From NCBI GenBank assembly GCA_041666225.1, contig JBAYHJ010000005.1, positions 2,320 to 66,319 of the forward strand: a DNA stretch of 64,000 nucleotides. The letters are read 5' to 3'. The first letter of the stretch is position 1, and every line of letters starts with the position of its first letter. This stretch comes from Minisyncoccota bacterium (GTDB lineage Bacteria; Patescibacteriota; Minisyncoccia; Phycocordibacterales; UBA9973). This document shows, one piece after another, positions 39,471 to 64,000 of the stretch. The notes beneath the pieces are model-generated. The model was not told the origin of the DNA and did no database searches. It saw nothing but the letters and a program-made list of their open reading frames with translations. The position numbers and the translations under genes were made by a program.

Positions 39471-40145
39471 ATGCCAAGAATAAAAAGAATTAATGTTGGA
39501 GGATATATATATCATGTTTTAAATAGAGCAAACGCTCGTGTACAAATTTTTGATAACAAAGAAGATTATAAACTTTTTGAAAATATTTTAGAAGAAGCTA
39601 TTAAGAAATTTAATGTAAAGATTTTAGCTTATTGTATTATGCCAAACCACTGGCATATGGTTTTGTATCCAGAAAATGAAGGTGATCTATCTATGTTTAT
39701 GGGATGGCTTACAAACACCCACACAAGAAGATGGCATACAAAAAAGGGAACTGTGGGACAAGGCCATCTCTATCAAGGAAGATATAAATCATTTATTTGT
39801 CAGGATGATAATCATTTTCTCACTTTAGTTAAATATGTTGAACAAAATGCAATGAAGGCTAATCTAGTTAAAAAAGCAGAAGATTGGGAATGGTCTAGTG
39901 TCTGGAGAAGAGAAAATGGAACAATTAAACAGAAAGAAATTTTATCAGCATGGCCAGTATTTAGACCAAAAGATTATTTATCTTGGTTAAATACAATTTT
40001 ACCACAAGAAAAAGGAGAAATTATTGAAAAATCTATCATTAAGAGTATCCCTTTTGGAGAAGATGTTTGGGTTAATAATACTGTAAAGAAATTTGGATTA
40101 GAACAAACACTAAGGAAAGTTGGAAGACCTAAAAATGGTGGCTGA
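39471..40145 (+). CDS. Y1/HUH tyrosine transposase (IS200-like / REP-associated tyrosine transposase-like)
   Basis: HUH motif in IMPNHWHMVLY, catalytic Tyr region KYVEQNAMKANL, 224 aa. Confidence 0.75.
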   Translation: MPRIKRINVGGYIYHVLNRANARVQIFDNKEDYKLFENILEEAIKKFNVKILAYCIMPNHWHMVLYPENEGDLSMFMGWLTNTHTRRWHTKKGTVGQGHLYQGRYKSFICQDDNHFLTLVKYVEQNAMKANLVKKAEDWEWSSVWRRENGTIKQKEILSAWPVFRPKDYLSWLNTILPQEKGEIIEKSIIKSIPFGEDVWVNNTVKKFGLEQTLRKVGRPKNGG

Positions 40146-44530: not shown

Positions 44531-45563
44531 CAATCCGAACACTCACATTTCTCCATTAAGGAGTTTTTTTTGTTTTAAATACTCTTGTAGTACTTCATAT
44601 GGGGTCTTGTAATTCAAGCATTTCATAGATCTTCTATTAAGTTTCTCTTCTAAGGAATGAATTTGTTCATCGGAATATTTAGAAAGGTCTTTACCCTTAG
44701 GAATATCTCGACGAATGTATTTATTCGCATTCTCAACCGTTCCTTTCTCCCATGAATGATATGGATGACAGAAATACAAAGGAACATTTAAAAGATTAGA
44801 AAGTTCTTTATGTTTTCTAAATAATATATCATTATCAAGAGTTATACTTTTCATATATGGATATTGTTTCTGTATCCCCATTAATGCATCATGAACATTT
44901 AAAATATTTACAACTTTAATTAATGCCAAAAATGCCATTCGACTCCTCCTATCAACCACTACAAGTAGAATTCCACTACCTCCTTTCCCTGAAACAACAA
45001 AGTCTGCTTCCATATCACCAAATCTAATTCTATCATTGATATATTTAGGTCTTTCATCAATGAAAACTCGATCAAGTAGTGTTGGATGAATTACAATTCT
45101 CTTCCGTCTTCTTTGTTTCTTCTTCTGTCTATATACCTCAATTTTTCTTCCATATATACTATTAATATATCGATAGATACTATCTTTAGAAACTGATATA
45201 TCAAATGACTCTTGAGTGTTAATTCTTCCAGCAATTACTTCTGGTGATTGATCATCATACAATTTGTTATCTACAAAGGATTGTATCTCTTTATTCGATA
45301 CTATCTTCATTCCTTGATACTTACTATCCTTTCTTCTAACATATGCCTTATGATTTGCTTTCCTAGCATCATATATTCCTTCAATTGAATTTCTCTTTAA
45401 TTCATCACTGATACTTGAAACACTTCGTCCGAGTGTTTTCGAGATGTCTCTTAAAGAATATCCTTTTTCTTTTAACAGGAATATTTCATCCCTTTCACTT
45501 TTAGAAAGATGCGAGAACTTTTTGTTTTTTTCATTTGTTTATTATATCAAAGTGTTCGGATTC
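44531..45563 (-). mobile_element. Second, divergent IS30-family element (about 1030 bp) with 12-13-bp inverted repeats
   Basis: IRs caatccgaacact (44531..44543) and agtgttcggatt (45551..45562); core GAACACT shared with copy 1. Confidence 0.7.
44543..45534 (-). pseudogene. IS30-family transposase split by a frameshift: ATG 45534 with HTH segment is -1 out of frame with the 255-aa DDE ORF (44543..45310) at an A7 run
   Basis: Minus-strand atgaaaaaaacaaaaagttctcgc; adding one A gives MKKNKKFSHLSKSERDEIFLLKEKGYSLRDISKTLGRSVSSISDELKRNSIEGIYDARKANHKAYVRRKDSKYQG continuous with MKIVSNKE...; aligns with N-terminus of the intact copy. Confidence 0.7.
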
Positions 45564-46941: not shown

Positions 46942-47063
46942 GAACAAAGGCGTTTCTAAACATTAAAAGGGAGATAGGACACACTTCCGCAGAACAGTGT
47001 TCCGCGGCTCAGCTCAAAATTCGTTAAAAATTTAAAAAAACACTACATAAAATAGGAGTGTTT

Positions 47064-47957
47064 ATGGACATTAAAATGTTAGCAGAGAGGTTTTATAATC
47101 ACTCGTTACACATCCGTGGTTTCTCTAAGAATACGGTAAATAGATATAAAAGTATTATAGATCCGTATTGTGAATATTCTAATATATCAGAAATAGAACA
47201 GGTTTCAGAAAAAAACATAAGACAGATGTTTTTTTATGGTCGCACAGAGAGGAAGTGGTGCTCAGGAACTTTTATTTGCAACTACAAGGCACTTAAGGTG
47301 TTTTTTGACTGGTGTATCAAGGAAGGACATATCAAAAATAATCCTATGAAGTGTTTGGAGTTGCCCAAGCTAGAGAAACGATTACCACTAAAGTTAACAA
47401 AACAAGAGTCATCAAAATTATTGGAAGTAGTTTTTAATTATCCTTATGATTATGAATATTTAAGATATAGGAATTACGCAATTTTCTCACTTTTTTTATT
47501 TGCTGGACTTAGAAGGGCTGAGTTATTAAAATTGAAATTAACGAATATCGATATTGAGAATCAGACTATCTATATATCTCTAGGAAAGGGCAACAAGGAC
47601 AGGATTATTCCAATGAACTTTACTCTTACTGAAACCTTAAAAAGATATTTAGTGGAACGCAAAAGATTAAACAAAACATGCCCAGAGTTCTTTTGTTCTC
47701 TAAATCGTAACATGGGATATACAAATAATGGACTCAGGCGATTAGTAAAACAAATAAGAGAAGCATCTGGAATTAACTTCGCATGTCATAAACTTCGTCA
47801 TACTTTTGCTACGCTCCTTTTAGAAAATGGGTCAGATATTTATAGTATTTCTCGACTAATGGGCCATAGTGATATAAAGACGACTACAATCTATTTATAT
47901 GCCTCTGTAGAGCATTTAAGGGCACAGATGAGTAAACATCCACTAAACACAATATGA
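47064..47957 (+). CDS. int: Tyrosine recombinase / phage-type integrase (ATG 47064 preceded by aggag; track GTG at 47058)
   Basis: C-terminal catalytic HKLRHTFATLLLENGSDIYSISRLMGHSDIKTTTIYLY (H..R..H..Y), upstream R in LLFAGLRRAEL. Confidence 0.85.
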   Translation: MDIKMLAERFYNHSLHIRGFSKNTVNRYKSIIDPYCEYSNISEIEQVSEKNIRQMFFYGRTERKWCSGTFICNYKALKVFFDWCIKEGHIKNNPMKCLELPKLEKRLPLKLTKQESSKLLEVVFNYPYDYEYLRYRNYAIFSLFLFAGLRRAELLKLKLTNIDIENQTIYISLGKGNKDRIIPMNFTLTETLKRYLVERKRLNKTCPEFFCSLNRNMGYTNNGLRRLVKQIREASGINFACHKLRHTFATLLLENGSDIYSISRLMGHSDIKTTTIYLYASVEHLRAQMSKHPLNTI

Positions 47958-48117: not shown

Positions 48118-50337
48118 TTATTCAGTTTCTTCTTTTCTGCCTTTAATCTTCACATTTCTCCAGCCCTGAATCTGTTTCTTGTCTATTGCTTTAGTTCCGT
48201 CAATGATATAACCACTATGATTAGGCAATTTTCTACCTAAAAATTTCTTATCAACAATTGGCAAATTATAGAATTTCGCGTATCGCGCGCACTCTTCGTA
48301 CATCGCATCTTTACTTACCCAAGCACTCGTTTCTTCTTCTAGGCAATCTTTAACAAAGTTAGCTACCATAGAGCCAGAAAGTAACATTTCTTTCTTTACT
48401 TCTTCTGGAGTTTTACCATAGCTAAAATCTTGCTTTTGTAAGATTTCACTTAATCCAAACAGTGATAAATTCAATAATCCAGATAATTCTTCTTTAGTTG
48501 TCATTTTATCTGTAAGGAATTTATCCACTCTTGTAATTTCCGCTAGGAACGGAACAATGATCCATCTGCTGAAATAGGCATCGTCATTGGTATCTTTTAC
48601 GTCTGGAATCTTATTACAAGCAAATGTTAATTTAGCGAAGTTCTGAAACTGAAATTGTTCTCCAAACTTCTTTTCACCGCTAATAATTCCACCACCAGTA
48701 GCTATCTTAAACAATCCATTGTCATTAATATCGCTGAAAGAAAGATCATCATATACATTTATATGTTTGTTATATAAGTGAGAAGATGCAAATTTGTCAG
48801 AGACTATCTTTTGTAGACTAATTCCTGAGACATTTTCTTTCCCTATAAATCTTTCGAACAATTTTATTAAGGTAGATTTTCCTGTATCTTTCTCTCCTAC
48901 AAAGATAATGGCTTTCTTAATGAAGTAATTTCTGTAGAGACAAAACCCGAACCATTCTAGAATTATTTTTTGATCCTCTGGCAAAATCTCATTCAGAAAG
49001 TTACTAATTACTGGACACATTGCATTCACATTGTAATTAACAGGAACCTTAGTGAAGAATAAGTATTCAGGACTATGTGGCATAAATTCTTTATTTTTAA
49101 TGTTAAATATTCCATTATTAAGATTAATGAAATTCTTATTAACATTAAAATCTTCTAAATCTGCCAAGGTTGAATCCTTAATCATTTCAATGATATTATT
49201 CTTGTTAGTAGTTGTCGTAAGCTCTTCTAATATTTCTTGAATTTCTGCCTTTATATTATTTAAGCCTAAAACGTAGATGCCATCTTTGTAGATGTAAATA
49301 TCGCGTATTCTTTCCCCGATGGTTTTAATGTGATATTTCTTAATGAGATATTTGGCAATTTCATATGATGTTTCTTTAGGGTGATTCAAGAAGTTACTCT
49401 TGAAATTTACATCTTCCGATATTTTTAGTACTAGATCTTTCTTCTTTTCCTGCTGGGATTGAATAGCAACCATAATTGTGTGTTCTCTATAATCCTTTCT
49501 TATCTGTGTTTTAACTCTTGCCCCAAGTGGTGAACTAAGCCATAGACGTTCCATTTGTTCTGCGTTGCAATCTGTCCAATAAGCTAGGTGCGAACATAAA
49601 GCTAAATCAGCCACAGAGTCATCGTTATTATGTGCAGTTGTATCACCGTTATACAGTAATTTAATTTTATCTCCTATTTTAGATGCGAACATTTTGGAAA
49701 GAATGATCTCATCGTCAATTGATGGAATAGCAACTGGAAATATGGCGGTTTGTTGCACTCCTTGCTTGCCCCATGGATAACCAATAATTGAGAGTAGTGC
49801 TATTGCTTCCTCTGGAGTAACTGTGCGGACAGGTAACGCTTCTTCAAGAGGGTTATTTGTCACAGTGAAATAACGACCTGATGTATAAGCTTCAAATGGG
49901 CCTTTCCTATTTGCTATAAGCTTAAGCGGTGCTGTAAGCGATAAATAAAGATGCAGTCCACTTTCAGACGGACTAATCTCTGTGTAAGTTCCTGCTTCCT
50001 TAATAAGCTTAAGAATATTCTCTCTTTCTTCATGCATGATTTCATTACCATCTAAACAATGATCTATATCAATTCCAAGAAGTAGTTGGTCTGGCGTAAA
50101 GACTATTCCAATACCTTGCGATACATTTACTACTTCTTCATACATGTTCCAAGTTGATGGGTTATCTGTTGATGCAGTTCTTCCATCTAAACCAATTGGC
50201 AACTTTGTAACTCGACCATCTTCTCCTGTTTCTTCATACCTCCAATTAACCCAGCACTTTTGTTCGCCAAAGGTTGATGCAAGTATGTTTTCATCTTCTT
50301 TTTTTTCTGTTTTTACTAATTCTTCTTCTATACTCAT
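48118..50337 (-). CDS. Bifunctional primase-polymerase (PrimPol N-domain) fused to D5/P4-alpha-like SF3 helicase
   Basis: N-terminal PrimPol motifs (GIGIVFTP...LGIDIDHC), Walker A FVGEKDTGKSTLIKLF, Walker B-like HINVYDD. Confidence 0.8.
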   Translation of the reverse strand: MSIEEELVKTEKKEDENILASTFGEQKCWVNWRYEETGEDGRVTKLPIGLDGRTASTDNPSTWNMYEEVVNVSQGIGIVFTPDQLLLGIDIDHCLDGNEIMHEERENILKLIKEAGTYTEISPSESGLHLYLSLTAPLKLIANRKGPFEAYTSGRYFTVTNNPLEEALPVRTVTPEEAIALLSIIGYPWGKQGVQQTAIFPVAIPSIDDEIILSKMFASKIGDKIKLLYNGDTTAHNNDDSVADLALCSHLAYWTDCNAEQMERLWLSSPLGARVKTQIRKDYREHTIMVAIQSQQEKKKDLVLKISEDVNFKSNFLNHPKETSYEIAKYLIKKYHIKTIGERIRDIYIYKDGIYVLGLNNIKAEIQEILEELTTTTNKNNIIEMIKDSTLADLEDFNVNKNFINLNNGIFNIKNKEFMPHSPEYLFFTKVPVNYNVNAMCPVISNFLNEILPEDQKIILEWFGFCLYRNYFIKKAIIFVGEKDTGKSTLIKLFERFIGKENVSGISLQKIVSDKFASSHLYNKHINVYDDLSFSDINDNGLFKIATGGGIISGEKKFGEQFQFQNFAKLTFACNKIPDVKDTNDDAYFSRWIIVPFLAEITRVDKFLTDKMTTKEELSGLLNLSLFGLSEILQKQDFSYGKTPEEVKKEMLLSGSMVANFVKDCLEEETSAWVSKDAMYEECARYAKFYNLPIVDKKFLGRKLPNHSGYIIDGTKAIDKKQIQGWRNVKIKGRKEETE

Positions 50338-52043: not shown

Positions 52044-53141
52044 ATGTATTTAATTAATAAAGACAAGAATGACATTGAACAGCTTGAAGAAGTAACTTTT
52101 AAATCAGCAGGTTTTAAAGAACGACAACATCTCCAAGAATGGATAGCAAAGAATCCTTTATCACTAGGTGAGGATTTTCTAATTATTCAAAAAGAATTTG
52201 CTGGTTTTGATGATACAAATGAAAGACTTGATCTTCTGGCTTTAGATAAAAAAGGCAATTTAGTAGTTATTGAAAACAAGCTAGATGATACAGGTAGGAA
52301 TGTCGTATGGCAATCACTAAAGTATGCTTCATATTGTTCAAGCTTAACTAGTGAAGGTATTGAAGATATTTTTGATGAGTATTTAAAAAAGAATGGAATA
52401 AAAGAAAGTGCTAAACAGTTACTAGAAGACTTCTTTGATGATGAAGATTTTAAAGAGAAATTAAATACTGGAAATAGTCAAAGACTAATAATGGTTGCTC
52501 ACGAATTTAGAAAAGAAGTAACCTCAACTGTTTTATGGCTCCTTAACTTTGGATTGAGAGTTCAATGTTTTAAAGTTACACCTTACAAGCTAGGAGAAAA
52601 GTTTCTTTTAGATTTTTCTCAGATTATTCCTATTAAAGAAGCTGAAGATTATATTATAAAAGTTGCATCAAAGAATAGAGAAGAAATTGGTAATCAAGAA
52701 GAACTAGAAAATAGATATTCAGTTAGATATGATTTTTGGACAGAATTCTTAAAAGAAGTAAATAAAAAGAATAGTTTATGTGCAAACTTAAGTCCTAGCA
52801 AAGATGCTTGGATTGGCATAGGTTCTGGAGTAAGTGGAATAAATATAAACTTAGTTGTTACTAGGTCCTACGCTAGAGTAGAAATATATATAAATAAAGG
52901 AGTAGCTCAAAATAAAGAAGTGTTTGATTATTTCTTTAAACAGAAGGAGCAGATAGAAAAAGACTTTGGAGCACCCCTAGATTGGGCAAGAATGGATGAT
53001 AAGGTTACTTGTAGAATTAAGTGGCAATTAGATAGTGTTAGCATCTTTGAAGAAGCAGATCATAAGAAAATGAATGACTTCTTGATTGACGGACTAGAAA
53101 GAATGAAGAAAGCATTTACTGAACCAATAAAAAACTTATAA
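52044..53141 (+). CDS. PD-(D/E)XK nuclease-fold protein, probably DUF4268-like, preceding hsdR
   Basis: RLDLLALDKKGNLVVIENKLD (D...ExK), C-terminal domain of the kind often found beside type I R-M genes. Confidence 0.45.
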   Translation: MYLINKDKNDIEQLEEVTFKSAGFKERQHLQEWIAKNPLSLGEDFLIIQKEFAGFDDTNERLDLLALDKKGNLVVIENKLDDTGRNVVWQSLKYASYCSSLTSEGIEDIFDEYLKKNGIKESAKQLLEDFFDDEDFKEKLNTGNSQRLIMVAHEFRKEVTSTVLWLLNFGLRVQCFKVTPYKLGEKFLLDFSQIIPIKEAEDYIIKVASKNREEIGNQEELENRYSVRYDFWTEFLKEVNKKNSLCANLSPSKDAWIGIGSGVSGININLVVTRSYARVEIYINKGVAQNKEVFDYFFKQKEQIEKDFGAPLDWARMDDKVTCRIKWQLDSVSIFEEADHKKMNDFLIDGLERMKKAFTEPIKNL

Positions 53142-53157
53142 TAATTAAAATAAATTT

Positions 53158-56157
53158 ATGGCTTTCAATGAAAATACAAGAGTAAAGATTCCAGCAATAT
53201 TACATCTATCCAAATTAGGATATGATTATATTTCTCTTTCAAATGCAAAGATAGATGAGAATACAAATATCTTCACTGATATATTTAGAGAGAGTCTTTT
53301 AAAAATAAATAAAGATGTTGAAGAACATGATATAAAGAAAACTTTTGATGAAGTTTCTCTTACTCTTGATAATGATGATCTCGGACAAGAATTTTATAAT
53401 AAGTTGATAGCAACATCTGGAATAAAACTTATTGATTTTAAAGATTTTAGTAATAACACCTTTAATGTAGTCACTGAACTTACCTACAAGAATGGAGATG
53501 ATGAATTCCGTCCAGACATTACGCTTCTTATTAACGGTATGCCTCTTGTATTTATAGAAGTTAAAAAACCTAATAATCAAGAAGGAATACTCGCAGAAAG
53601 AAATAGAATAAATGTAAGATTTAAGAATAAGAAGTTTAAAAAGTTTATAAACATTTCTCAGATCTTGGTATTTTCCAATAACATGGAATACGACTCTGAA
53701 TCAATCGTTCCTATCCAAGGAGCATTTTATGGGACACCATCATATCAAAATGCGAACTTTAATTGTTTTAGAGAAGAAGAAAAAATTGATTTAGCTAGGA
53801 TTTTAAAAGAAGAAGATGAAGATATTGAGAATATTGTATTGAAAGATAACAATTTATTGACAATAAAACATTCCCAAGAATTTATTACTAATAAAGATAA
53901 CAATACTCCCACAAATCGGATTTTAACTTCGTTATTTAGCAAAGAAAGAATAGCATTGCTTTTGAGATACAGTATTGCTTATGTTCAAGAAAAGAACGGA
54001 CTTGAAAAACACATAATGCGTTATCCTCAATTGTTTGCAACAAAGGCAATTGAAAATAAACTAGAAAATGGAATAACTAAAGGTATCATTTGGCACACAC
54101 AAGGTAGTGGCAAAACAGCACTTGCTTATTATAATGTAAATTATTTAACTGACTATTATCAGAAGAAAGAAATAATCCCAAAATTCTATTTCATTGTAGA
54201 TAGAATTGATCTAATGATTCAAGCTAAGAACGAGTTTGTAAATCGTGGTCTTACCGTGCATATAGTTAATTCTAAGGAAGAGCTTACGAAAGACTTTAAT
54301 TTATTAACAGCAATTCATAACCTCTCAGGCAAAAGAGAAATTACTGTTGTTAATATTCAAAAGTTTAAGGATGATACGGATGTATTAAAAACAATTGATT
54401 ATAATATAAATACACAGAGAGTTTATTTCTTAGACGAAGTACATAGAAGTTACAATCCTACAGGAAGTTTCTTGGCTAACCTTTTTAATTCAGATCGCAA
54501 AGCTATCATGATAGGGTTAACAGGAACTCCACTTATAACAAAAGATAGATTCTCCAGAGAAATCTTTGGAGACTACATTCATAAATATTATTACAATTCG
54601 TCTATTGCAGATGGATATACTTTAAAATTAATTAGAGAAGGTATAGAAAATAATTATAAAATTCAACTCGAAAAAACCTTAAAAGAGGTTGAAGTGATGA
54701 GTGGAGATGTAGAAAAACGAGTTATATATTCACATGAAAAATTTGTAGAGCCGATGCTTGAATATATAGTTGAAGATTTTATTAAAAGTAGAATAAGATT
54801 TGCTGACAATAATATTGGTGGAATGGTTGTCTGTGATAGTTCTGATCAAGCTAAGAAGATGTCTGAAATTTTCGAAAGAAAATATAAAGACACTGATAAA
54901 AATTTAACATCAGCTCTTATTCTCCATGATGTTGGAGACAAGGAAGAAAGAAAAAAAGAAATTGAAGATTTTAAAGCTGGTAAAATAGACCTCTTGTTTG
55001 TATACAATATGTTACTTACAGGATTTGATGCTAAACGACTTAAAAAACTTTATATAGGTAGAATAATCAAAGACCATAACTTACTCCAAACACTTACTAG
55101 AGTAAACAGACCATATAAAGAATTTAGATATGGATATGTTGTAGATTTTGCAGATATTCGTAAGGAATTTGATTCTACAAATAAGGCATATTTTGATGAA
55201 CTGCAACTAGAACTTGGAGATGAGATGAAGACATACTCTGGATTGTTTGCTTCCCAAGAAGAAATTGAGCAAGATATACAAGATATTAAAGAAATGTTGT
55301 ATCACTATGACTTAAATAATGCTGAAACTTTCTCTCAACAAATCAATCAAATAGAAGATCGTAGTGTTATATTAGAGCTAAAAAAGGCCTTAGAAAAAGC
55401 AAGAAATTTATATAATATCATTCGCTTACAAGGAAACTATGAATTATTAGAAAAAATTGATTTTAAAAAACTCAATCAGCTTTATAGTGAAACTTCTCAT
55501 CGTTTAGATTTACTTAATCTTAAGGATTCTCTTGCAAATAGTACTGATACAACAAATCTTTTAAATATTGCACTTGAAGACATAGTTTTCATGTTTCGTA
55601 AGGTATCAGAAGAAGAACTTATAATTGCAGATCAACTTAAAAACATGCTTCGAAAAACTCGTGAAGCACTTGGTGGAAATTTTGATCCAAAGGACCCACA
55701 CTTTGTTTCTTTATATGATGAATTAAAAAGATTATTTAATAAAAAGAATCTAGATGAAATTACACAAGAAGAGATGACTCAAAATATTGGTTCATTACAG
55801 CAAATCTACGACAAAGTAACAGAACTAAACCGCAGGAATAATTTATTAAAAGCAAAATATGAGAATGATGCGAAGTATGCTCGAATTCATAAGCGAATAT
55901 TAGAAAAAGGAAACATTACTACACGAGAGAGTGAAATAGGAGAAACTCTTTTAGATATTAAGAAACAAGCTGATGAGAAGGTATTACTTAACGCTAAATT
56001 ATTAAACAATGAAAGTTACTTTGATGGATTAATGATGCAAATGGTAATTGGAGGTTTTGAGAAAACAAATATTAAACTTGATTCTGAGTCAGCTAAATAT
56101 ATAAATAAATGCGTCGTAAGTGAGTACATTAATGAATTTCAAGGCACAATAGCATAA
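53158..56157 (+). CDS. hsdR: Type I restriction enzyme R subunit
   Basis: N-terminal HsdR nuclease domain, helicase motif I IWHTQGSGKTALAYY, DEAH box FLDEVHRS, motif VI QTLTRVNR. Confidence 0.9.
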   Translation: MAFNENTRVKIPAILHLSKLGYDYISLSNAKIDENTNIFTDIFRESLLKINKDVEEHDIKKTFDEVSLTLDNDDLGQEFYNKLIATSGIKLIDFKDFSNNTFNVVTELTYKNGDDEFRPDITLLINGMPLVFIEVKKPNNQEGILAERNRINVRFKNKKFKKFINISQILVFSNNMEYDSESIVPIQGAFYGTPSYQNANFNCFREEEKIDLARILKEEDEDIENIVLKDNNLLTIKHSQEFITNKDNNTPTNRILTSLFSKERIALLLRYSIAYVQEKNGLEKHIMRYPQLFATKAIENKLENGITKGIIWHTQGSGKTALAYYNVNYLTDYYQKKEIIPKFYFIVDRIDLMIQAKNEFVNRGLTVHIVNSKEELTKDFNLLTAIHNLSGKREITVVNIQKFKDDTDVLKTIDYNINTQRVYFLDEVHRSYNPTGSFLANLFNSDRKAIMIGLTGTPLITKDRFSREIFGDYIHKYYYNSSIADGYTLKLIREGIENNYKIQLEKTLKEVEVMSGDVEKRVIYSHEKFVEPMLEYIVEDFIKSRIRFADNNIGGMVVCDSSDQAKKMSEIFERKYKDTDKNLTSALILHDVGDKEERKKEIEDFKAGKIDLLFVYNMLLTGFDAKRLKKLYIGRIIKDHNLLQTLTRVNRPYKEFRYGYVVDFADIRKEFDSTNKAYFDELQLELGDEMKTYSGLFASQEEIEQDIQDIKEMLYHYDLNNAETFSQQINQIEDRSVILELKKALEKARNLYNIIRLQGNYELLEKIDFKKLNQLYSETSHRLDLLNLKDSLANSTDTTNLLNIALEDIVFMFRKVSEEELIIADQLKNMLRKTREALGGNFDPKDPHFVSLYDELKRLFNKKNLDEITQEEMTQNIGSLQQIYDKVTELNRRNNLLKAKYENDAKYARIHKRILEKGNITTRESEIGETLLDIKKQADEKVLLNAKLLNNESYFDGLMMQMVIGGFEKTNIKLDSESAKYINKCVVSEYINEFQGTIA

Positions 56158-56160
56158 TAT

Positions 56161-57783
56161 ATGACACAAGATTTTACAATTCAAACAAAACAATTAATTG
56201 ATAACCTTAAGGGTATTTGTTCCTCTTATGGTTTAGGAAATGATGGTAATGAATTTAAAATCATTACTCAAGTGTTCTTGTATAAGTTTATGAACGATAA
56301 GTTTGGGTATGAAGTAAAACAGATTGATAATAGATTGCAAAAGGCTGAAAACTGGGAACAAGAAATATCTAAATATACTAACAAGGAGTATGATATGTTA
56401 CTTCTAAAAATGAATCCAGATAGTGCTAAACTTAAAAGAGAGCATTTTTTATCTAGTCTTCATAACAGACAAAACGATGAGGAGTTTGCTAAAATATTTG
56501 ATGATACATTGCTTGATATTTCTATTTTCAATAAAGATATCTTCTCTGTTAAGACTGAGACTGGAGCTAAAATAAAACTTTTTGATGAATTAAGTAATTT
56601 TATTACAGATAGTTCAAAGAGAGATGATTTTGCAAGAGCACTTATTAATCAACTTATTAATTTCAGTTTTGAGAAAACATTTAATCAAAAGTTTGATTTC
56701 TTTTCTACAATATTTGAATATCTTATTAAAGATTACAATAAAGATGGTGGAGGAAAATATGCTGAGTATTACACTCCTCATGTAGTATCAAAAATAATGG
56801 CTTCTATTTTAGTAGATAGTCCTGTAAAAAATGTAACTTGTTATGATCCATCTGCTGGTTCTGGAACTCTCCTTATGAATTTAGCACATGCTATCGGTGT
56901 GGATCGTTGTACTATTTACTCGCAAGATATTTCACAGAAGTCATCTAGTTTACTTCGTCTTAATCTAATTTTAAATAATCTAGTACATTCTATTCAAAAT
57001 ATTATTCAAGGTGATACTTTACTTGCTCCATATCATAAAACTGGTGATAAACTAATGACCTTTGATTATATAGTCTCGAACCCCCCATTCAAACTAGATT
57101 TTAGTAAAGAAAGAGATGATATCGAGTCTAAACAGAGTTATGGTCGTTTTTTTGCAGGAGTTCCTAAGGTTACACCTAAAAATCCAGACAAGATGGCAAT
57201 TTATTTGCTTTTTATTCAGCATATTATGTTTTCTTTAGCTTCTAATGGGAAAGCCGCTATTGTTGTTCCTACTGGATTTATCACTGCACAAAGTGGTATT
57301 GAAATGAAAATTAGAGAGAAATTAATTAATAAAAAAATGTTACGAGGAGTAGTTTCTATGCCGAGTAATATATTTGCGACTACTGGTACAAATGTATCTA
57401 TTTTATTTATTGATAAAACTAATACAGATGGTGATGTAATTCTCATGGATGCTTCTAGTTTAGGAACGAGTGTAAAAGAGGGTAAAAATAAAAAAACATT
57501 ACTTTCCCCAGAAGAAGAACAATTGATTATTAGTACTTTTAATAAACGTAAAGTAGAAGAAGATTTTTCTGTGGTTGTTTCGTATGACCAGATAAAAGAG
57601 AAGGGCTATTCTTTTAGTGCTGGGCAATATTTTGAGGTAAAAATTGAGTATATTAATATAACTCAAAAAGAATTTGGAACAAAAATGAGCAGATATAAAT
57701 TAAACCTTGCAGAATATTTCAAACAATCTCATGAGTTAGAACAAGAAATTAAAAAACAGTTGGAATTGTTAAAATATGAATAA
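56161..57783 (+). CDS. hsdM: Type I R-M N6-adenine DNA methyltransferase subunit
   Basis: HsdM N-terminal domain, AdoMet motif DPSAGSGTLL, catalytic NPPF (VSNPPFKLDF). Confidence 0.9.
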   Translation: MTQDFTIQTKQLIDNLKGICSSYGLGNDGNEFKIITQVFLYKFMNDKFGYEVKQIDNRLQKAENWEQEISKYTNKEYDMLLLKMNPDSAKLKREHFLSSLHNRQNDEEFAKIFDDTLLDISIFNKDIFSVKTETGAKIKLFDELSNFITDSSKRDDFARALINQLINFSFEKTFNQKFDFFSTIFEYLIKDYNKDGGGKYAEYYTPHVVSKIMASILVDSPVKNVTCYDPSAGSGTLLMNLAHAIGVDRCTIYSQDISQKSSSLLRLNLILNNLVHSIQNIIQGDTLLAPYHKTGDKLMTFDYIVSNPPFKLDFSKERDDIESKQSYGRFFAGVPKVTPKNPDKMAIYLLFIQHIMFSLASNGKAAIVVPTGFITAQSGIEMKIREKLINKKMLRGVVSMPSNIFATTGTNVSILFIDKTNTDGDVILMDASSLGTSVKEGKNKKTLLSPEEEQLIISTFNKRKVEEDFSVVVSYDQIKEKGYSFSAGQYFEVKIEYINITQKEFGTKMSRYKLNLAEYFKQSHELEQEIKKQLELLKYE

Positions 57784-59035
57784 GAAATATAAATTAAAAG
57801 AATTATGTGAAATTACTTCAAGTAAGCGAATATTTGCACATGAATACGTAGAAAAAGGTATATCATTTTTTCGAAGTAAAGAAATTATTGAATTAGCTAA
57901 TGAACAAAAAATAGATGAGCCATTATTCATTAGTGAAGAAAGATATAATGAGATAAAGAAAAAATTTAACATTCCTAAAAATGGAGATATTTTACTTTCT
58001 GCAATAGGAGCTAATCTCGGAATCCCTTATTGGGTTAATTTGGATTTTGAATTTTATTTTAAAGATGGAAATGTTATTTGGTTTAGAAACTTTTCATCAA
58101 AATTAGACAGTGAGTATTTGTTTTGGTGGATGAATACAAATTATTTTTTTAAACAATTTACAGATAAAGCAATTGGAGCTGCACAAAAAGCTCTCACTAT
58201 TGATTCATTAAATGAATATTTAGTTGAAGTTCCAAGTTTAAAAGAGCAAAGAGATGCTATAAAAATTTTTAGAGCAATATCAAAAAAAATTATAGTAAAC
58301 AACAAAATCAACGCTGAACTAGAAGTAATGGCAAAAACCTTATATGATTACTGGTTTATACAATTTGATTTTCCAAATAAAAATAATAAACCTTATAAAA
58401 ATAGTGGGGGTAAAATGATTTACAGTAATGAATTAAAAAAAGAAATCCCTGAAGGATGGGAAGTTGATAGAATAAATAAAAAGATTAAAATCGAATCAGG
58501 CTTTCCTTTTAATTCTGATGATTATTGCGAAAATGGAAAATATCAAATTATAACAATTAAGAACGTACAAGATGGATATTTAGATACTTCAACAGTAGAT
58601 AAAATTGACCTTATTCCTGATAATATATCAGATTTTTGTGTATTGGAAATTGGTGATGTCTTAATGTCTCTTACAGGCAATGTTGGAAGGATGTGTTTTG
58701 TGGATAAAGAAAATCTACTTCTAAACCAAAGAGTTGGTAAGTTGCTTGGAGAAAAAGAATTTATAATTTATACTTATTTATTTTTTAAGAGACCAGAAAA
58801 TCAAAAGAGGTTAGAAAAAATAGCTGGTGGAAGCTCACAGTCAAATTTAAGCCCAATAAATGCAGTAAAAGATTTTTTCATTATACCTTCACAAAATATA
58901 TTAAATGATTTTTCAAAAATTATCATCCCTATTTTTGAACAAATAATAAGAAATAAAAAAGAAAACAGAGAACTCTCAGAACAACGAGATTGGCTCCTTC
59001 CAATGCTAATGAACGGACAAGTAACCGTTAAATAA
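57776..59035 (+). CDS. hsdS: Type I R-M specificity subunit with two target-recognition domains
   Basis: Duplicated TRD architecture with conserved central and C-terminal coiled-coil repeats; overlaps hsdM by 8 nt. Confidence 0.85.
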   Translation: MNKKYKLKELCEITSSKRIFAHEYVEKGISFFRSKEIIELANEQKIDEPLFISEERYNEIKKKFNIPKNGDILLSAIGANLGIPYWVNLDFEFYFKDGNVIWFRNFSSKLDSEYLFWWMNTNYFFKQFTDKAIGAAQKALTIDSLNEYLVEVPSLKEQRDAIKIFRAISKKIIVNNKINAELEVMAKTLYDYWFIQFDFPNKNNKPYKNSGGKMIYSNELKKEIPEGWEVDRINKKIKIESGFPFNSDDYCENGKYQIITIKNVQDGYLDTSTVDKIDLIPDNISDFCVLEIGDVLMSLTGNVGRMCFVDKENLLLNQRVGKLLGEKEFIIYTYLFFKRPENQKRLEKIAGGSSQSNLSPINAVKDFFIIPSQNILNDFSKIIIPIFEQIIRNKKENRELSEQRDWLLPMLMNGQVTVK

Positions 59036-59040
59036 CAAAT

Positions 59041-59724
59041 ATGAACCCACTTAAAACAAATGGCTTAATAATTCAAAATTTTCCACAAAAGGAGTATGAG
59101 GCCATTCATTCAATTTTAAGTAGTAAGTATGCAGAAAGAAAAGAATATGAGCATTTTGCAGGAGCTTGGAATGCTGTGGCGTACAGATATAAAGCTGCTG
59201 TTGATCACGGACAAGATTTCATTGAATTATTCAAATTACATGGAACAGCACCACAACCAGAAAAAAGATATCTACAAGAAAAAGCTCTTTTTGATCACTT
59301 CAGCTCTTGCTTTTCTGTTTTTGAATCAATATGCTATGGATTTTTTGCTATAGGGTCTATTATTAAACCAGAATATTTTTCTATTATTGATCCAGTAGAT
59401 CAACGAAAAATATCCCCAGAGACAACTAAGAGAATCTTTCAAGGTGCATTTCCAGATGAGCAAATTACTAAAACGTTAATAGAGTTAACTTCTGATCCAG
59501 AATTTGAAAATATTAGGAATACTAGAAATATTCTTACTCACAGAACAGCACCAGGAAGAAAGATTTATCTTAATATAGGAAAGGATGAATCACCGCCAAC
59601 TGAATGGAAATTGAATAATAAACCCTTAGATGAATTTATAGTTAAATCAAACGAAGAAAATATGAAAAGACTTTTAAATAATTTATTAAATACAGGTGAA
59701 GAATTTTGTAAATCATATCTATAA
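59041..59724 (+). CDS. Hypothetical protein with HEPN-like Rx4H motif, directly downstream of hsdS
   Basis: All-alpha composition; NIRNTRNILTHR contains R-x4-H; 6 nt after the hsdS stop. Confidence 0.4.
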   Translation: MNPLKTNGLIIQNFPQKEYEAIHSILSSKYAERKEYEHFAGAWNAVAYRYKAAVDHGQDFIELFKLHGTAPQPEKRYLQEKALFDHFSSCFSVFESICYGFFAIGSIIKPEYFSIIDPVDQRKISPETTKRIFQGAFPDEQITKTLIELTSDPEFENIRNTRNILTHRTAPGRKIYLNIGKDESPPTEWKLNNKPLDEFIVKSNEENMKRLLNNLLNTGEEFCKSYL

Positions 59725-59728
59725 TTAT

Positions 59729-60691
59729 ATGGCACATAAAAATATTATAAAAATACCAAATAAGATAAAAGAGCAATTAGAAACATTTAGTCAGGATGAT
59801 GTTGTTGTAGCTTGTGTAAAATATATTCCTAATGAAGAAATTAATAAATATAAACACTTAAACATACAATACATTAATGGAGAACTTATTGTTCCTCCTT
59901 CAGATACCCCAGATCCTAATGCTGGAAAATTCTCTCGTGCTAATTTAGAGGGATTTGAAAAGAAAAGAACAGATTTACCAAAAATTTCAAAAGATTTTAG
60001 TTTTGATGCTCCCAATTGGGGTGGGTATGGGACTCATGAGGTTTCTCACACACGAGAAGTATTTCAAAAAGATTTTTATCCACCAAAAGAAGTTGAACTA
60101 AAAATTGAACAAGTAGAAAAAAGAGAGAATGGTTTTAAAATTAAATTTTCCATAGAACAAGTAATCAATCGTCGTACTCCAAATTTTGAGAAAGAACTGC
60201 TTTATAACCTAAATTTATTACAAGAAAATGTTGGGATGATAGATGTATTTCCAAGTATTGCTACCCTAGCAGATTATGCAAAGACCGTTTATATAGATTG
60301 GGAAATATTACCACCTGGAACTGTTGATGAAATCATAGAAGCTTTATTAAAAAATCAAAGAACAGGAAGTATTACACCTGATCAGATAAAAATAACGAGA
60401 GAAAGAATAGCTGTTATGGCAAAATTGAAACCTACTGTATATATAAAAGGTATGACTGGTTTTTTAAGGTATTTTGGTGCAAAGTTTGGAGAGGATTTTG
60501 TTGTTTTTGAAAATATAAAATATGGAAATGCTTTATATATAATGTATGATTCTTGGGAGAAGTTAAGTAAGAAGAGTAGAACAGAGTTATTAAGTGGACC
60601 AAGAGAAGGATTTGATCGTATAGAACATAAAAATGGATGGGAAAATAATTTAGCAAAATTTGTTAGAGAATATAGGTATAAAAATAAATAG
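59729..60691 (+). CDS. Hypothetical protein, 321 aa (start at ATG 59729)
   Basis: Clean ORF starting 5 nt after the preceding stop; no motif. Confidence 0.4.
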   Translation: MAHKNIIKIPNKIKEQLETFSQDDVVVACVKYIPNEEINKYKHLNIQYINGELIVPPSDTPDPNAGKFSRANLEGFEKKRTDLPKISKDFSFDAPNWGGYGTHEVSHTREVFQKDFYPPKEVELKIEQVEKRENGFKIKFSIEQVINRRTPNFEKELLYNLNLLQENVGMIDVFPSIATLADYAKTVYIDWEILPPGTVDEIIEALLKNQRTGSITPDQIKITRERIAVMAKLKPTVYIKGMTGFLRYFGAKFGEDFVVFENIKYGNALYIMYDSWEKLSKKSRTELLSGPREGFDRIEHKNGWENNLAKFVREYRYKNK

Positions 60692-60698
60692 TAATTAG

Positions 60699-61448
60699 AT
60701 GTCTGAATTTTATAATCCAAATAGAACAAGAAATATATATGACCCTAAAAGCAAGGAGCCTTTTAAACTATCTCGTTCAAAGATAGAGAACTTTATGCAT
60801 TGTAAAAAATGCTTTTACTTGGACCGTAGATTAGGAATTGGACAACCACCAGGATATCCTTTTAATTTAAACACCGCTGTGGATACCTTGCTTAAGAAAG
60901 AATTTGATATACATAGAGCCAAACACAAGACACATCCTCTAATGAAGGCGTATGGACTCAATGAGGTGCCTTTTAGTCATGAAATGATAGATGAATGGAG
61001 GGAGAATTTTAAAGGAGTGCAGTATCTTCACAAGCCTACTAATTTTATCGTTACTGGAGCAGTGGATGATTTATGGCAAGATGAAAATGGAGAAATTATT
61101 GTAGCAGACTATAAAGCTACAAGCAAAACTTCGCAGGTTACACTTGATGCTGATTGGCAGGATGGATACAAAAGACAAATGGAAATATATCAATGGCTAC
61201 TTCGTCACAATGGATTAAAAGTTTCAAATACTGGTTACTTTGTATATTGTAATGGAAAGACTGATAGAGAAGCATTTGATGGAAAGCTAGAATTTGATAT
61301 TGATCTATTGCCATACACAGGAGATGATTCATGGGTGGAAGGAACACTTAATGAGATTAAAGAATGCCTTGATGGACCTATGCCAGAGCCAGATTCTGAA
61401 TGTGATTTGTGTAATTATAGGAAAGCAGTTAGTGAAGTTGAAAAATAA
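60699..61448 (+). CDS. Cas4-like / RecB-family PD-(D/E)XK nuclease with Cys cluster (no CRISPR array nearby)
   Basis: N-terminal CKKCFYL, GAVDDL (motif II), EIIVADYKATSK (E-x-K with DYK), QMEIYQW (QxxxY), C-terminal CLDG...ECDLCNY. Confidence 0.6.
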   Translation: MSEFYNPNRTRNIYDPKSKEPFKLSRSKIENFMHCKKCFYLDRRLGIGQPPGYPFNLNTAVDTLLKKEFDIHRAKHKTHPLMKAYGLNEVPFSHEMIDEWRENFKGVQYLHKPTNFIVTGAVDDLWQDENGEIIVADYKATSKTSQVTLDADWQDGYKRQMEIYQWLLRHNGLKVSNTGYFVYCNGKTDREAFDGKLEFDIDLLPYTGDDSWVEGTLNEIKECLDGPMPEPDSECDLCNYRKAVSEVEK

Positions 61449-61452
61449 AATT

Positions 61453-61683
61453 ATGCATATCCCAGATGAAAAATTCGTTAGATTTAAAGAAATCTTTAAA
61501 GAAGAATTTGGAGAGGATGAATTTAATAAAATGACTAATAAACAATTATTTGAAAGTGCAACAAAACTTATAACTTTAATGGAGGCTGTTTACAAACATC
61601 AAAATTCTCATAATAATAAGGAAAGGATAGATAAAGCTTTTGATGTTTTATTTGATGAAACATTAAAAAATTATCGTAAATAA
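61453..61683 (+). CDS. Small hypothetical protein, 76 aa
   Basis: ATG 61453 five nt after the nuclease stop; helical; no motif. Confidence 0.35.
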   Translation: MHIPDEKFVRFKEIFKEEFGEDEFNKMTNKQLFESATKLITLMEAVYKHQNSHNNKERIDKAFDVLFDETLKNYRK

Positions 61684-61735: not shown

Positions 61736-62839
61736 ATGTCAATTCGAGACAGTATAGGGTCATATAAAATTCAAAATCTTGGTGGCACAAGAGCCAGTAA
61801 AGGTTTCTCATATCAAAATCATTGGGCGATTAAGAAAATTATAGAATTACATACCTCCGAAAAAGATTATGTTGTTTTATTTGAAGTATATGATGATGTA
61901 AGTGTTCTTGATAGTGAATCAAATCCTAGTAAAATTGATATTTATCAAGTTAAAAGTACCCAAAACCAAACCCCTGTAACTCTTTCAAAATTATGTCAAA
62001 AAACTAAACAAGAAAAATCAATTTTAGCAAAATTATTTTTAACTAAGGTGCAATTGCCAAAAGAATTAAATAACATTGTTGAAAAAATGTTTATTGTATC
62101 AAACTCATCTTATCAATGCAAAACTAAATTTCATTCATCTACTAGCTCTGAAATATCAGTAGGAGATCATTATAGATCTGAGTTAAAAAGTAAAAAAATT
62201 GATGAACTATCAAAGCAATCTGGAATACAAAATTTAGAAATACAGAAATTATTAAATATTACATTTTTAATAAAATCTCCTATATCTTTTGATGAACCAT
62301 ATAGACAAATAAGAGATATGCTCCAAGACTTTTTTAAGACAAAATTTAAAGAATTTTTTGATGTTACACCTTTTTATAATCAGTTATTGGTTGAAATTGA
62401 GAATAGATGTGAATCAGAGAAAATTGATGGATACGATGAAACAATAAAAAGTAAAGCTATTACAAAAAAATGGTTAGATGGTATACTAAAAGAAATAACT
62501 CCTGATCTTAAACAACAATTAAGAATGATAGAACAGGAATTAAGTAAAGAGGGTTGGGGTCCAGAAAAGATCATTAAACTAGGAGAAGGGTGGCGGCAAA
62601 TGGAAATAGATAATTTTAGCGATAAGGAATATTTTAATGGTAAACTAATAACAGTGTTAGATACTTTGATTGTAAAATTTAATTTAAATTATAAAAAATA
62701 TAGTGATATCACCGATATTATTTTAAAAGAACTAAAAGATAATTATTATGATATTATTGAAAATAGAGAAGATTATTATATAAAAGCATTAATATTATGG
62801 AGAACCTTAGATCATCGCATAAAAACCTTAGAAAATTAG
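61736..62839 (+). CDS. Protein with N-terminal Cap4/DUF4297-like nuclease domain (Lamassu LmuA-like effector candidate)
   Basis: KGFSYQNHWAIKKIIEL, DYVVLFEVYDDVSVLD and IDIYQVKST resemble the GFxYQ ... D ... QxK signature. Confidence 0.45.
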   Translation: MSIRDSIGSYKIQNLGGTRASKGFSYQNHWAIKKIIELHTSEKDYVVLFEVYDDVSVLDSESNPSKIDIYQVKSTQNQTPVTLSKLCQKTKQEKSILAKLFLTKVQLPKELNNIVEKMFIVSNSSYQCKTKFHSSTSSEISVGDHYRSELKSKKIDELSKQSGIQNLEIQKLLNITFLIKSPISFDEPYRQIRDMLQDFFKTKFKEFFDVTPFYNQLLVEIENRCESEKIDGYDETIKSKAITKKWLDGILKEITPDLKQQLRMIEQELSKEGWGPEKIIKLGEGWRQMEIDNFSDKEYFNGKLITVLDTLIVKFNLNYKKYSDITDIILKELKDNYYDIIENREDYYIKALILWRTLDHRIKTLEN

Positions 62840-62863
62840 TAAAAAGTTTAAGTAAAAAAGAAC

Positions 62864-64000
62864 ATGAAAAAATTCGTATTGGAAGAAATAAAACTAATAT
62901 CACAGAAAGAACAAAGAGCAAATAATTTTATCTTTGATAAAGGATTTAATGTTATAACTGGGCAGAATGGTGTTGGGAAGTCTCATTTGATAAAAAGTAT
63001 TCCGTGGGCTTTTGGGGCTGAACCATCAACTTTACATCCCAATTGGATAAAAGCTGATATAAGTGTTATTGTTAAATTTTCAATTAATAAAGTGCGTTAT
63101 AAAATATTAAGGACAAATAAAACTTTCTTAGTTTTTGATGATGAAAATAATTTAATTAATCAATCTGTTAGTAGTATAACTAAAGAATTATCTCCTTTTT
63201 TATCAGAATTATTTGATTTTGATTTGAAGCTTCCATTAAAGGAAGGAGAGAAAAAATTAACACAGCTTACACCAGCCTACTATTTTTCACCTTTTTATGT
63301 TGATCAAGATAGTGGCTGGACAAATTTATGGCAAAGTTTTAAGAATCTTCAAATGTTTTCGAACTGGAGAAGACCGTTGCTTGATACTTTTACAAATATT
63401 TTATCTTTAGAACTACAAAAAACAAAAAACAGTATTAGTGAGGAGAAAATGAGATTAAAAGAGTTCGAGAATAGGCAAGATTTATTTAATAAGACCTTTG
63501 AAAACACCGAAGAGGAAATTGTTAATTTAAATTTTAATATTAATTTTGATAATTATAAAAAAGAAATTGATGAATTAATAATAAAACTAGATGGTTTGCA
63601 AAAAAAAGAATTTGAATATAAAGAATCAATAAGAAATTTGTCAAACAAAAAGGTTATTCTCGAAAATCAAGTTAATATAGTTGAATCGTCTATAAACTCT
63701 TTAAACAAAGAACACAATTTAATTAATAAAATAAAAGATCATATATTAGAATGTCCCACCTGTGGTGCTGAGTATGAAAATTCTTTTATTGATAAGTTCA
63801 ACATAGCTCAAGATTTATATACTGCACAAGAATTATTGGTTGATTTAAGAGAGGACCTTAATAAAATTAATAATAATATATTGGAAATTAAAAATATAGA
63901 TATTGATAATTCAAAAGAAATAAATAAATTAAATGATATTTTAAATAAAAAAAATCATAAAGTAACTATAAATGAAATAATTAAGAAGGAAGGAGAAAAA
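62864..64000 (+). CDS. P-loop SMC/Rad50-like ATPase with coiled coil and CPTC zinc-hook-like motif; 3' end beyond window (LmuB-like candidate)
   Basis: Walker A GQNGVGKS near N-terminus, long heptad region, CPTCGAEY in mid coiled coil; no stop before 64000. Confidence 0.6.
   Translation, partial: MKKFVLEEIKLISQKEQRANNFIFDKGFNVITGQNGVGKSHLIKSIPWAFGAEPSTLHPNWIKADISVIVKFSINKVRYKILRTNKTFLVFDDENNLINQSVSSITKELSPFLSELFDFDLKLPLKEGEKKLTQLTPAYYFSPFYVDQDSGWTNLWQSFKNLQMFSNWRRPLLDTFTNILSLELQKTKNSISEEKMRLKEFENRQDLFNKTFENTEEEIVNLNFNINFDNYKKEIDELIIKLDGLQKKEFEYKESIRNLSNKKVILENQVNIVESSINSLNKEHNLINKIKDHILECPTCGAEYENSFIDKFNIAQDLYTAQELLVDLREDLNKINNNILEIKNIDIDNSKEINKLNDILNKKNHKVTINEIIKKEGEK

Follow-up and report, generated by a model that had tools for sequence, protein, structure and literature searches.

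Our reference for type I Lamassu defense was LmuAB of Bacillus cellulasensis NIO-1130 (PDB 9ux7/9ux8; hereafter BcLmuAB), which is reportedly the Doron 2018 system. Type II systems (DdmABC, LmuACB) encode a small third protein, LmuC, between lmuA and lmuB, whereas type I systems lack it (bioRxiv 10.1101/2025.06.23.660979), and the group without LmuC has been termed "clade S" of short Lamassus (PMC12663957). BcLmuAB is the only system of this kind for which anti-phage and abortive-infection activity, an A1:B2 stoichiometry and activation by DNA ends have been established (bioRxiv 10.1101/2025.06.23.660979). Here we analyzed two adjacent genes at the right-hand end of a 64,000-nucleotide (nt) stretch of contig JBAYHJ010000005.1, the whole of which we call the window. 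The host is a Candidatus Paceibacterota metagenome-assembled genome (MAG) from the candidate phyla radiation (CPR)/Patescibacteria (phylum Minisyncoccota in NCBI taxonomy), with the window proteins listed as MFA6515048-MFA6515104. The pair is very probably a type I Lamassu (LmuAB, short clade S) that is complete and apparently functional, carried as cargo of an integrative element in this genome. A preliminary description of the window, made from the letters alone, had proposed a Lamassu-like pair in which a Cap4-type nuclease akin to LmuA/DdmA is followed by a zinc-hook ATPase akin to LmuB/DdmC.

The first gene, lmuA, encodes a protein of 367 amino acids (aa) that carries KGFSYQNHWAIKK, DYVVLFEVYDD and IDIYQVKST; the coordinates of this and the other features are collected in Table 1. 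The lmuB ATG lies 25 nt past the last base of the lmuA stop codon on the same strand, which leaves a 24-nt spacer with the sequence TAAAAAGTTTAAGTAAAAAAGAAC. The lmuB open reading frame (ORF) is still open at the window edge, with 379 of its 573 codons inside. The peptide strings, the GQNGVGKS and CPTC motifs, the start of the second gene and its truncation had all been read correctly in the preliminary description. An exact-protein look-up with the lmuA ORF returned two assemblies, a 69,112-bp metagenome contig (ena:ERZ27249449:k141_1670229, designated L001) and a 3.7-kb Logan contig (L002). The Logan contig is identical to the window across 2,700 bases, and because L001 is identical to it across all 12,265 overlapping bases, L001 could be used as the sequence past position 64000. 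The complete lmuB occupies positions 11129-12850 of L001 (window-equivalent 62864-64585). Just 3′ of its stop codon is a hairpin with a GC-rich 16-bp stem, AAACGGCGAAGC...GCTTCGCCGTTT, placed between runs of A and T (L001 12860-12896, window-equivalent 64595-64631). This hairpin sits between the lmuB stop codon and a convergent 78-aa gene and is likely a bidirectional intrinsic terminator. Beyond it are four small genes on the opposite strand (78, 179, 62 and 112 aa), and from the hairpin and these convergent genes we conclude that the operon ends with lmuB. A 42-aa ORF in another frame (62797-62925, + strand) overlaps the 3′ end of lmuA and the 5′ end of lmuB; it is also called in L001, in L002 and in two related contigs described below (L083 and L085), and is probably a gene-calling artifact of AT-rich sequence.

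The assignment of LmuA as a Cap4-type nuclease held up. Its sole Pfam match is Cap4_nuclease (PF14130), which scores 101.9 bits against a cutoff of 26.2 (E = 7e-29) and covers model positions 2-199 of 200. The PADLOC LmuA model PDLC00238 aligns residues 1-358 with model positions 3-362 of 365 (2e-46), and nine further PADLOC LmuA sub-models also match the protein. NCBIfam has no family for LmuA, and the NCBI entry for the identical protein, MFA6515103.1, is named "dsDNA nuclease domain-containing protein." We built an AlphaFold2 (AF2) model of LmuA from ten close homologs, and every secondary-structure element in it from residue 188 on is a helix. Among PDB folds, this model best matches 9ux7_C, which is LmuA in the type I LmuAB-DNA complex (E = 8e-7, template modeling scores 0.53/0.62, 353 aligned columns), followed by HamA (8zue_A), Salmonella LmuA and the Cap4 of CBASS, the antiphage systems that signal through cyclic oligonucleotides (6vm5/6vm6). 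The presence of HamA and Cap4 among these folds, along with weak PADLOC HamA matches at the N-terminus (3e-9 and 1e-8), could be read to mean that the protein belongs to another defense system with a Cap4/DUF1837 nuclease, CBASS Cap4 or HamA, and that it lies beside an ATPase gene by coincidence. However, the HamA and Cap4 matches span the shared nuclease domain only, while the PADLOC LmuA match is far stronger and runs the full length. In addition, the C-terminus of LmuA is helical, and no SAVED domain, CD-NTase cyclase or HamB helicase is present among the neighbors checked. A coincidental adjacency is refuted by the co-occurrence of LmuA and LmuB in related loci, described below, and we consider an origin in another Cap4 system extremely unlikely.

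To assess conservation, we aligned 35 diverse LmuA sequences from the genomic loci. Residues G17, D54, Q71, K73, S95, K99, Y214, K240 and L269 are invariant in this set; E50 and D53 are invariant only among the 10 closest relatives. In an alignment made with the profile of these sequences, YQVK of the window protein stands opposite FIQVK of BcLmuA, and K73 aligns with the lysine of that motif, which we counted as K59. BcLmuA K59 is a catalytic residue, and the K59A substitution lowers defense (bioRxiv 10.1101/2025.06.23.660979). The invariance of D54, Q71 and K73, together with the alignment of K73 to K59, therefore indicates that the predicted LmuA active site (E50, D53-D54 and Q71-x-K73) is intact. 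The C-terminal domain (CTD) is presumed, by analogy, to serve in LmuB docking and oligomerization. Both the PADLOC LmuA match and the BcLmuA fold match (353 columns, from a moderate-confidence model) span this domain, and in the BcLmuAB structure the LmuA CTD contacts the hook-proximal coiled coil (bioRxiv 10.1101/2025.06.23.660979).

For LmuB, the PADLOC model PDLC00249 matches the truncated ORF at 3e-106 and the complete protein at 1e-154, where residues 1-566 align with model positions 1-559 of 565. Scores of this size, like the Cap4_nuclease and LmuA scores above, are well outside what chance would give. A phmmer search of all PDB sequences gave one strong match, 9ux7_A, "Lamassu protein LmuB" (562 aa; E = 4.5e-15, residues 10-561), and the matches after it are marginal and fall in the Rad50 N-terminal region. 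The NCBI entry, MFA6515104.1, reads "hypothetical protein WCT42_02455." In the AF2 model (predicted local distance difference test score, pLDDT, 86.6), an N-terminal head lobe (residues 1-180) is followed by outward helices (182-220 and 228-289), a hook loop with CPTC, returning helices (308-364 and 369-438) and the C-terminal head lobe. The coiled coil is kinked at about residues 221-227 and 365-368; that of BcLmuB is bent in a comparable way, at residues 210-225 and 351-357 (bioRxiv 10.1101/2025.06.23.660979). Foldseek placed 9ux7_A first (E = 1e-23) and type II LmuBs second (9uxh, 9hqu, 9hqx and 9nyg), and then returned SMC, Rad50 and JetC-type heads. The fold matches to type II LmuBs have E = 4e-15 to 1e-10. 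The proposal of a Lamassu-like pair is thus borne out by the hidden Markov model (HMM) matches, by LmuB as the best solved relative, by the 9ux7 chains as the best folds of both proteins and by the co-occurrence of the two genes.

The resemblance of the LmuB fold to Rad50 and SMC heads is also what would be expected of a housekeeping Rad50/SbcC-type repair module with a nuclease partner, one with no role in immunity. NCBIfam gives weak Rad50, SbcC and archaeal SMC-related (ASRP) matches to LmuB, and Lamassu has itself been proposed to derive from SbcCD (PMC12663957). Yet the NCBIfam scores are 15-47 bits against cutoffs of 300-1087, the 573 aa of LmuB compare with 872-1007 positions in the Rad50/SbcC models, and the models specific to Lamassu match from end to end. 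LmuB is paired with a Cap4 nuclease and not with an Mre11/SbcD phosphoesterase, and the genes lie in an integrase/primase element beside a Type I restriction-modification (RM) operon, with a GC content of 25.1% for lmuAB against 31.5% for the chromosomal part of the window. We therefore give a repair module hardly any credence.

We compared the LmuB of the window with homologs at 22-95% identity (n = 27). Invariant residues are G38-K39-S40 of Walker A, D147-Q148-D149, C297-P298-x-C300, G461, D493 and Q521; S462 is nearly invariant, and G461-S462 form a GS-type signature remnant. In the phmmer alignment K39 is opposite the Walker A lysine of BcLmuB, numbered K37 in bioRxiv 10.1101/2025.06.23.660979, and CPTC aligns with BcLmuB ECQYC, that is, with the 285-CQYC-288 Zn-hook of the same work. 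CPTC is predicted to be a zinc-hook motif and sits, in the AF2 model, in the loop at the apex of the coiled coil, and the DQD motif is probably the Q-loop of the ATPase head, as judged from its position in the N-terminal head lobe. The Walker B motif reads IIIDSP and aligns with FCMDSF of BcLmuB. Since D493, the Walker B aspartate, is followed by Ser, Ala or Thr in 27/27 homologs, the canonical catalytic glutamate is absent from all aligned LmuB homologs. The preliminary description had held that a completed ATPase without the Walker B/signature motif and the C-terminal half would count against its proposal. The completed protein has the C-terminal head half, the GS-type signature remnant and the Walker B aspartate, but not the Walker B glutamate. 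Every sequence element required by the BcLmuAB model is present and conserved in the window pair.

A Walker B motif without its catalytic glutamate might also point to a decayed or non-functional remnant, and recent cargo, possibly not under selection, would fit both the low GC content and the position in a mobile element. However, a "naturally deviant Walker B" was described in BcLmuB and VcLmuB, the two LmuBs studied biochemically, and their complexes still hydrolyze ATP in a Walker A-dependent manner (bioRxiv 10.1101/2025.06.23.660979). Further, both ORFs are full length relative to the family models, all family-invariant residues are present, and in relatives with 95%, 83% and 63% identity the ORFs are still intact and equally long. 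Decay of the pair is thus highly improbable.

Several results weigh against the identification of the pair as a working type I Lamassu. The AF2 model of LmuA has a mean pLDDT of 70.9, with low values around the active-site strands. Searches of LmuA against the PDB with single-sequence phmmer and with a 10-sequence profile found no nuclease relative, and the 35-sequence profile reaches BcLmuA (9ux7_C) weakly (E = 0.008). In the fold alignment, LmuB shares about 18% identity with BcLmuB, which belongs to the only type I system studied biochemically. Pfam gave sub-threshold SMC_N and AAA matches to LmuB and no family at the gathering score. A scan for a lmuAB promoter found consensus matches no more often than in shuffled sequence, and none was assigned. 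As for Pfam, BcLmuB, reconstructed from the PDB alignment, likewise has no family above threshold. DUF3732, a family originally tied to LmuB, was dropped as a criterion; neither the window LmuB nor BcLmuB matches it.

We next consider the two-gene architecture. The LmuB alignment was scanned against one genome per species (185,579 species), which identified 427 stretches that encode relatives, and the best 80 of these 427 were used for locus statistics. A LmuA homolog lies directly upstream of lmuB in 77/80 loci, with its ORF either overlapping lmuB or ending up to about 50 nt ahead of it. In two of the three loci without a LmuA homolog, the sequence available upstream of lmuB is only about 500 nt long. 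By BLAST, no other window neighbor recurs in the 80 loci, except for unrelated RM genes in two of them. The PADLOC LmuC models match none of nine neighboring ORFs, and neither PHROGs, run on eight neighboring ORFs, nor Pfam, run on the neighbors, indicated a third component. An LmuC-like gene past position 64000, anticipated in the preliminary description, was looked for on L001 and none was found. The 24-nt spacer is too short to hold a gene, there is no LmuC match and the genes past the terminator are convergent, all of which argues for type I, and the conserved unit across loci is exactly lmuA plus lmuB, which likewise identifies the pair as type I Lamassu. The identity of LmuA and LmuB stands as first proposed, whereas the likeness to the type II DdmABC arrangement does not.

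These data can be set against a different reading of the locus, in which it is a type II, DdmABC-like Lamassu whose LmuC went unrecognized, either as an 83-aa ORF (61432-61683) or as one of the small downstream genes. LmuC is small and very divergent and can be missed by HMMs (PMC12663957), and small uncharacterized ORFs do flank the pair, the 83-aa ORF upstream and those of 78, 179, 62 and 112 aa downstream. Against this, lmuC of type II systems is positioned between lmuA and lmuB, where the window has a gap of 24 nt and only the 42-aa out-of-frame overlap is called, and the gap is similarly short in all 77 related loci. The downstream genes are on the opposite strand, past the hairpin terminator. 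The 83-aa ORF has no homolog in the 80 related loci, and no gene upstream of lmuA in a 76%-identical element (L083) has a homolog in the window. The candidate ORFs have no PADLOC LmuC match, and the closest structural relatives of both proteins are type I chains. We judge a hidden LmuC to be very unlikely, and in what follows we treat the pair as a two-gene, type I Lamassu.

The first 44 kb of the window hold chromosomal housekeeping genes (trpB, cysS, dnaB, aspS, gltX, gatB and a release factor), and the gene content from about 44.5 kb on is that of an integrated mobile element (Table 1). No direct repeat of at least 15 nt was found linking the integrase side of the element with the contig tail in a search for attachment sites, and the right-hand boundary of the element is probably beyond the contig end. 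Another metagenome contains a related element (L083), which has in common with the window the integrase (60% identity), LmuA (76%), LmuB (83%) and two small downstream genes. It has no RM system and carries different genes upstream of lmuA, from which we conclude that lmuAB behaves as a self-contained cargo module.

Table 1. Positions of the Lamassu pair, its motifs and the surrounding mobile-element genes in the window (L001 positions are given for the genes past its end).
Feature	Position	Strand	Description or basis
lmuA	61736-62839	+	367-aa effector: N-terminal Cap4-type PD-(D/E)xK dsDNA nuclease and helical C-terminal domain
LmuA Cap4 nuclease domain, residues 16-224	61781-62407	+	Pfam PF14130
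LmuA predicted active-site motif E50, D53-D54, Q71-V-K73	61883-61954	+	Conservation; alignment to BcLmuA
LmuA C-terminal helical domain, about residues 225-367	62408-62836	+	AF2 model; PADLOC and fold matches
lmuB, SMC/Rad50-like ATPase, first 379 codons	62864-64000	+	PADLOC; phmmer; fold match
LmuB Walker A / P-loop GQNGVGKS, residues 33-40	62960-62983	+	Invariance; alignment to BcLmuB
LmuB DQD motif, residues 147-149	63302-63310	+	Invariance in 27 homologs
LmuB antiparallel coiled-coil arm	63407-64000, continues past window end	+	AF2 secondary structure
LmuB CPTC predicted zinc-hook motif, residues 297-300	63752-63763	+	Invariance; alignment; AF2 model
Transposase-like gene	44543-45310	-	
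Tyrosine integrase	47058-47957		
D5_N/DUF5906/NrS-1-like primase-helicase	48118-50337	-	
NucS_C + DUF4268 protein	52044-53141		
Type I RM operon hsdR (999 aa), hsdM (540 aa), hsdS (419 aa)	53158-59035	+	
Four genes of unknown function between hsdS and lmuA	59041-61683	+	Co-directional, tightly packed
Small genes of unknown function downstream of lmuB	L001 12911-14212 (window-equivalent 64646-65947)	-	

The Type I RM operon directly upstream is complete and in the same orientation as the pair; its hsdM and hsdS overlap by 8 nt and its GC content is 28.5%. Between hsdS and lmuA, one of the four co-directional genes encodes a 227-aa protein with a sub-threshold HEPN_Cthe2314 match (E = 0.036). 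A second protein, of 320/331 aa, has no match in Pfam, NCBIfam, PADLOC or PHROGs, and a third is a 249-aa Cas4-like PD-(D/E)xK nuclease (PDDEXK_1 at 2.7e-13) that has Cys residues close to each end, like Fe-S Cas4/AddB nucleases. The 83-aa ORF considered above lies just upstream of lmuA. No defense-system model matches the four genes taken together. They recur only in a 95%-identical contig (L085) and are found neither in the 80 Lamassu loci nor in L083, and they could be an uncharacterized defense or RM-accessory module. Among the small genes downstream of lmuB, the 62-aa ORF has a weak SymE/AbrB-like match. Within the housekeeping part of the window, the aspartate--tRNA ligase gene (17169-18590, + strand) encodes 473 aa that match the 590-position bacterial aspS model in two stretches; the bacterial insertion domain therefore seems to be absent, which fits CPR genome reduction. 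Two insertion sequence-type genes also occur among the housekeeping genes, one for an HTH_38 + rve integrase-core transposase (38195-39208, - strand) and one for an IS200-like Y1 transposase (39471-40145, + strand).

Metagenome assemblies are the source of all LmuB relatives at 46-95% identity, and above 46% identity the only one from a named taxon belongs to a Candidatus Saccharibacteria MAG (L003; LmuB 63% identity). Relatives at or below 37% identity occur in Bacteroidota, Bacillota, Planctomycetota and Proteobacteria and in one DPANN archaeon MAG. The pair is also present in a second Saccharibacteria MAG (L078) and in a Woesearchaeota archaeon MAG (L047). This distribution hints at a type I Lamassu sub-lineage that circulates among ultra-small episymbionts. 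We can also entertain a broader proposal, which we regard as unlikely, that a CPR-associated type I Lamassu sub-lineage travels on integrase/primase elements of episymbionts and maybe cooperates with the four genes between hsdS and lmuA; for example, these genes might generate or process the DNA ends sensed by LmuB. If so, this would represent a new composite defense-island logic in organisms that are considered to have few abortive-infection systems. A literature search for Lamassu together with Patescibacteria returned no paper with a title or abstract on Lamassu in Patescibacteria.

How the pair might act can be proposed by homology, using the cryo-electron microscopy and biochemistry of BcLmuAB (bioRxiv 10.1101/2025.06.23.660979) and the description of clade S (PMC12663957). 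We hypothesize that two LmuB chains would form a dimer in which the kinked coiled coils and the CPTC zinc hook hold them together, and that one LmuA monomer would dock near the hook by its helical CTD, so that the Cap4 domain is held in a monomeric, inactive state. The LmuB head, with Walker A K39 and the deviant Walker B IIIDSP, would bind free dsDNA ends or replication intermediates of a phage or plasmid, and ATP binding and hydrolysis may modulate this binding to DNA ends. LmuA would then be released and would tetramerize through its CTD to form a composite nuclease site, in which the D54 / Q71-x-K73 site is predicted to cut DNA without sequence specificity. Such non-specific DNA degradation would end the infection by sacrificing the infected cell, amounting to abortive infection.

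The small genomes of CPR/Patescibacteria are usually described as defense-poor. The window pair places a nuclease-based system, for which abortive infection is presumed by homology, on a mobile element of this group. The locus is mildly unusual in its CPR host, its mobile-element vehicle, the four unknown genes between the RM operon and lmuA, and a closest named relative that is also CPR. For annotation, a generic nuclease and a "hypothetical protein" can now be labeled as a complete type I Lamassu. As a very divergent, intact member of the clade without LmuC, with about 18% identity to the only type I system of solved structure, the pair helps to show which residues are truly constrained, namely Walker A GKS, DQD, CPxC, GS, the Walker B Asp without Glu, and Q521 in LmuB, and D54, Q71 and K73 in LmuA.

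The relationship of the pair to described systems can be summarized from the most distant to the closest. CBASS Cap4 and Hachiman HamA are homologous to the window LmuA in the N-terminal PD-(D/E)xK (Cap4/DUF4297-DUF1837) domain. However, Cap4 is controlled by a SAVED domain that binds cyclic oligonucleotides and HamA by the HamB helicase, and the window pair has neither. With Rad50/SbcC-Mre11/SbcD, the window LmuB shares an ABC-type head whose halves are separated by an antiparallel coiled coil bearing a CxxC zinc hook, and recognition of DNA ends, a trait of those complexes, is by analogy also ascribed to LmuB. Rad50/SbcC differ in their much longer coiled coils, and their Walker B glutamate and signature motif are canonical. 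The nuclease that partners them is a phosphoesterase at the heads, whereas the partner in the window is a Cap4 nuclease that would be placed near the hook.

Type II systems (V. cholerae DdmABC and S. enterica LmuACB; 9uxh, 9hqu, 9hr5 and 9ny5) share with the window pair a Cap4-nuclease LmuA (DdmA) and an SMC-like LmuB (DdmC), and effector sequestration, DNA-end sensing and activation by tetramer formation are probably common to both. Type II nevertheless needs LmuC (DdmB), which is encoded between lmuA and lmuB and touches DNA and both partners, and its LmuBs are longer, at about 630-650 aa compared to 573 aa. From BcLmuAB, the window pair differs in sequence, being only about 16-18% identical in fold alignments. 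LmuA has 367 aa and BcLmuA 315 aa, and the two fall to different PADLOC LmuA sub-models; the hook reads CPTC instead of CQYC, and the host is a CPR bacterium instead of a Bacillus. What the two systems share is an operon of lmuA and lmuB without lmuC, a LmuA with an N-terminal Cap4 nuclease, a QxK catalytic lysine and a helical CTD, and a LmuB of similar size (573 and 562 aa) with Walker A, a kinked coiled coil, a mid-sequence CxxC hook and a D-S deviant Walker B. The window pair leaves the current picture of how Lamassu works unchanged, and it is an intact, very divergent member of a known system that was recently characterized structurally.

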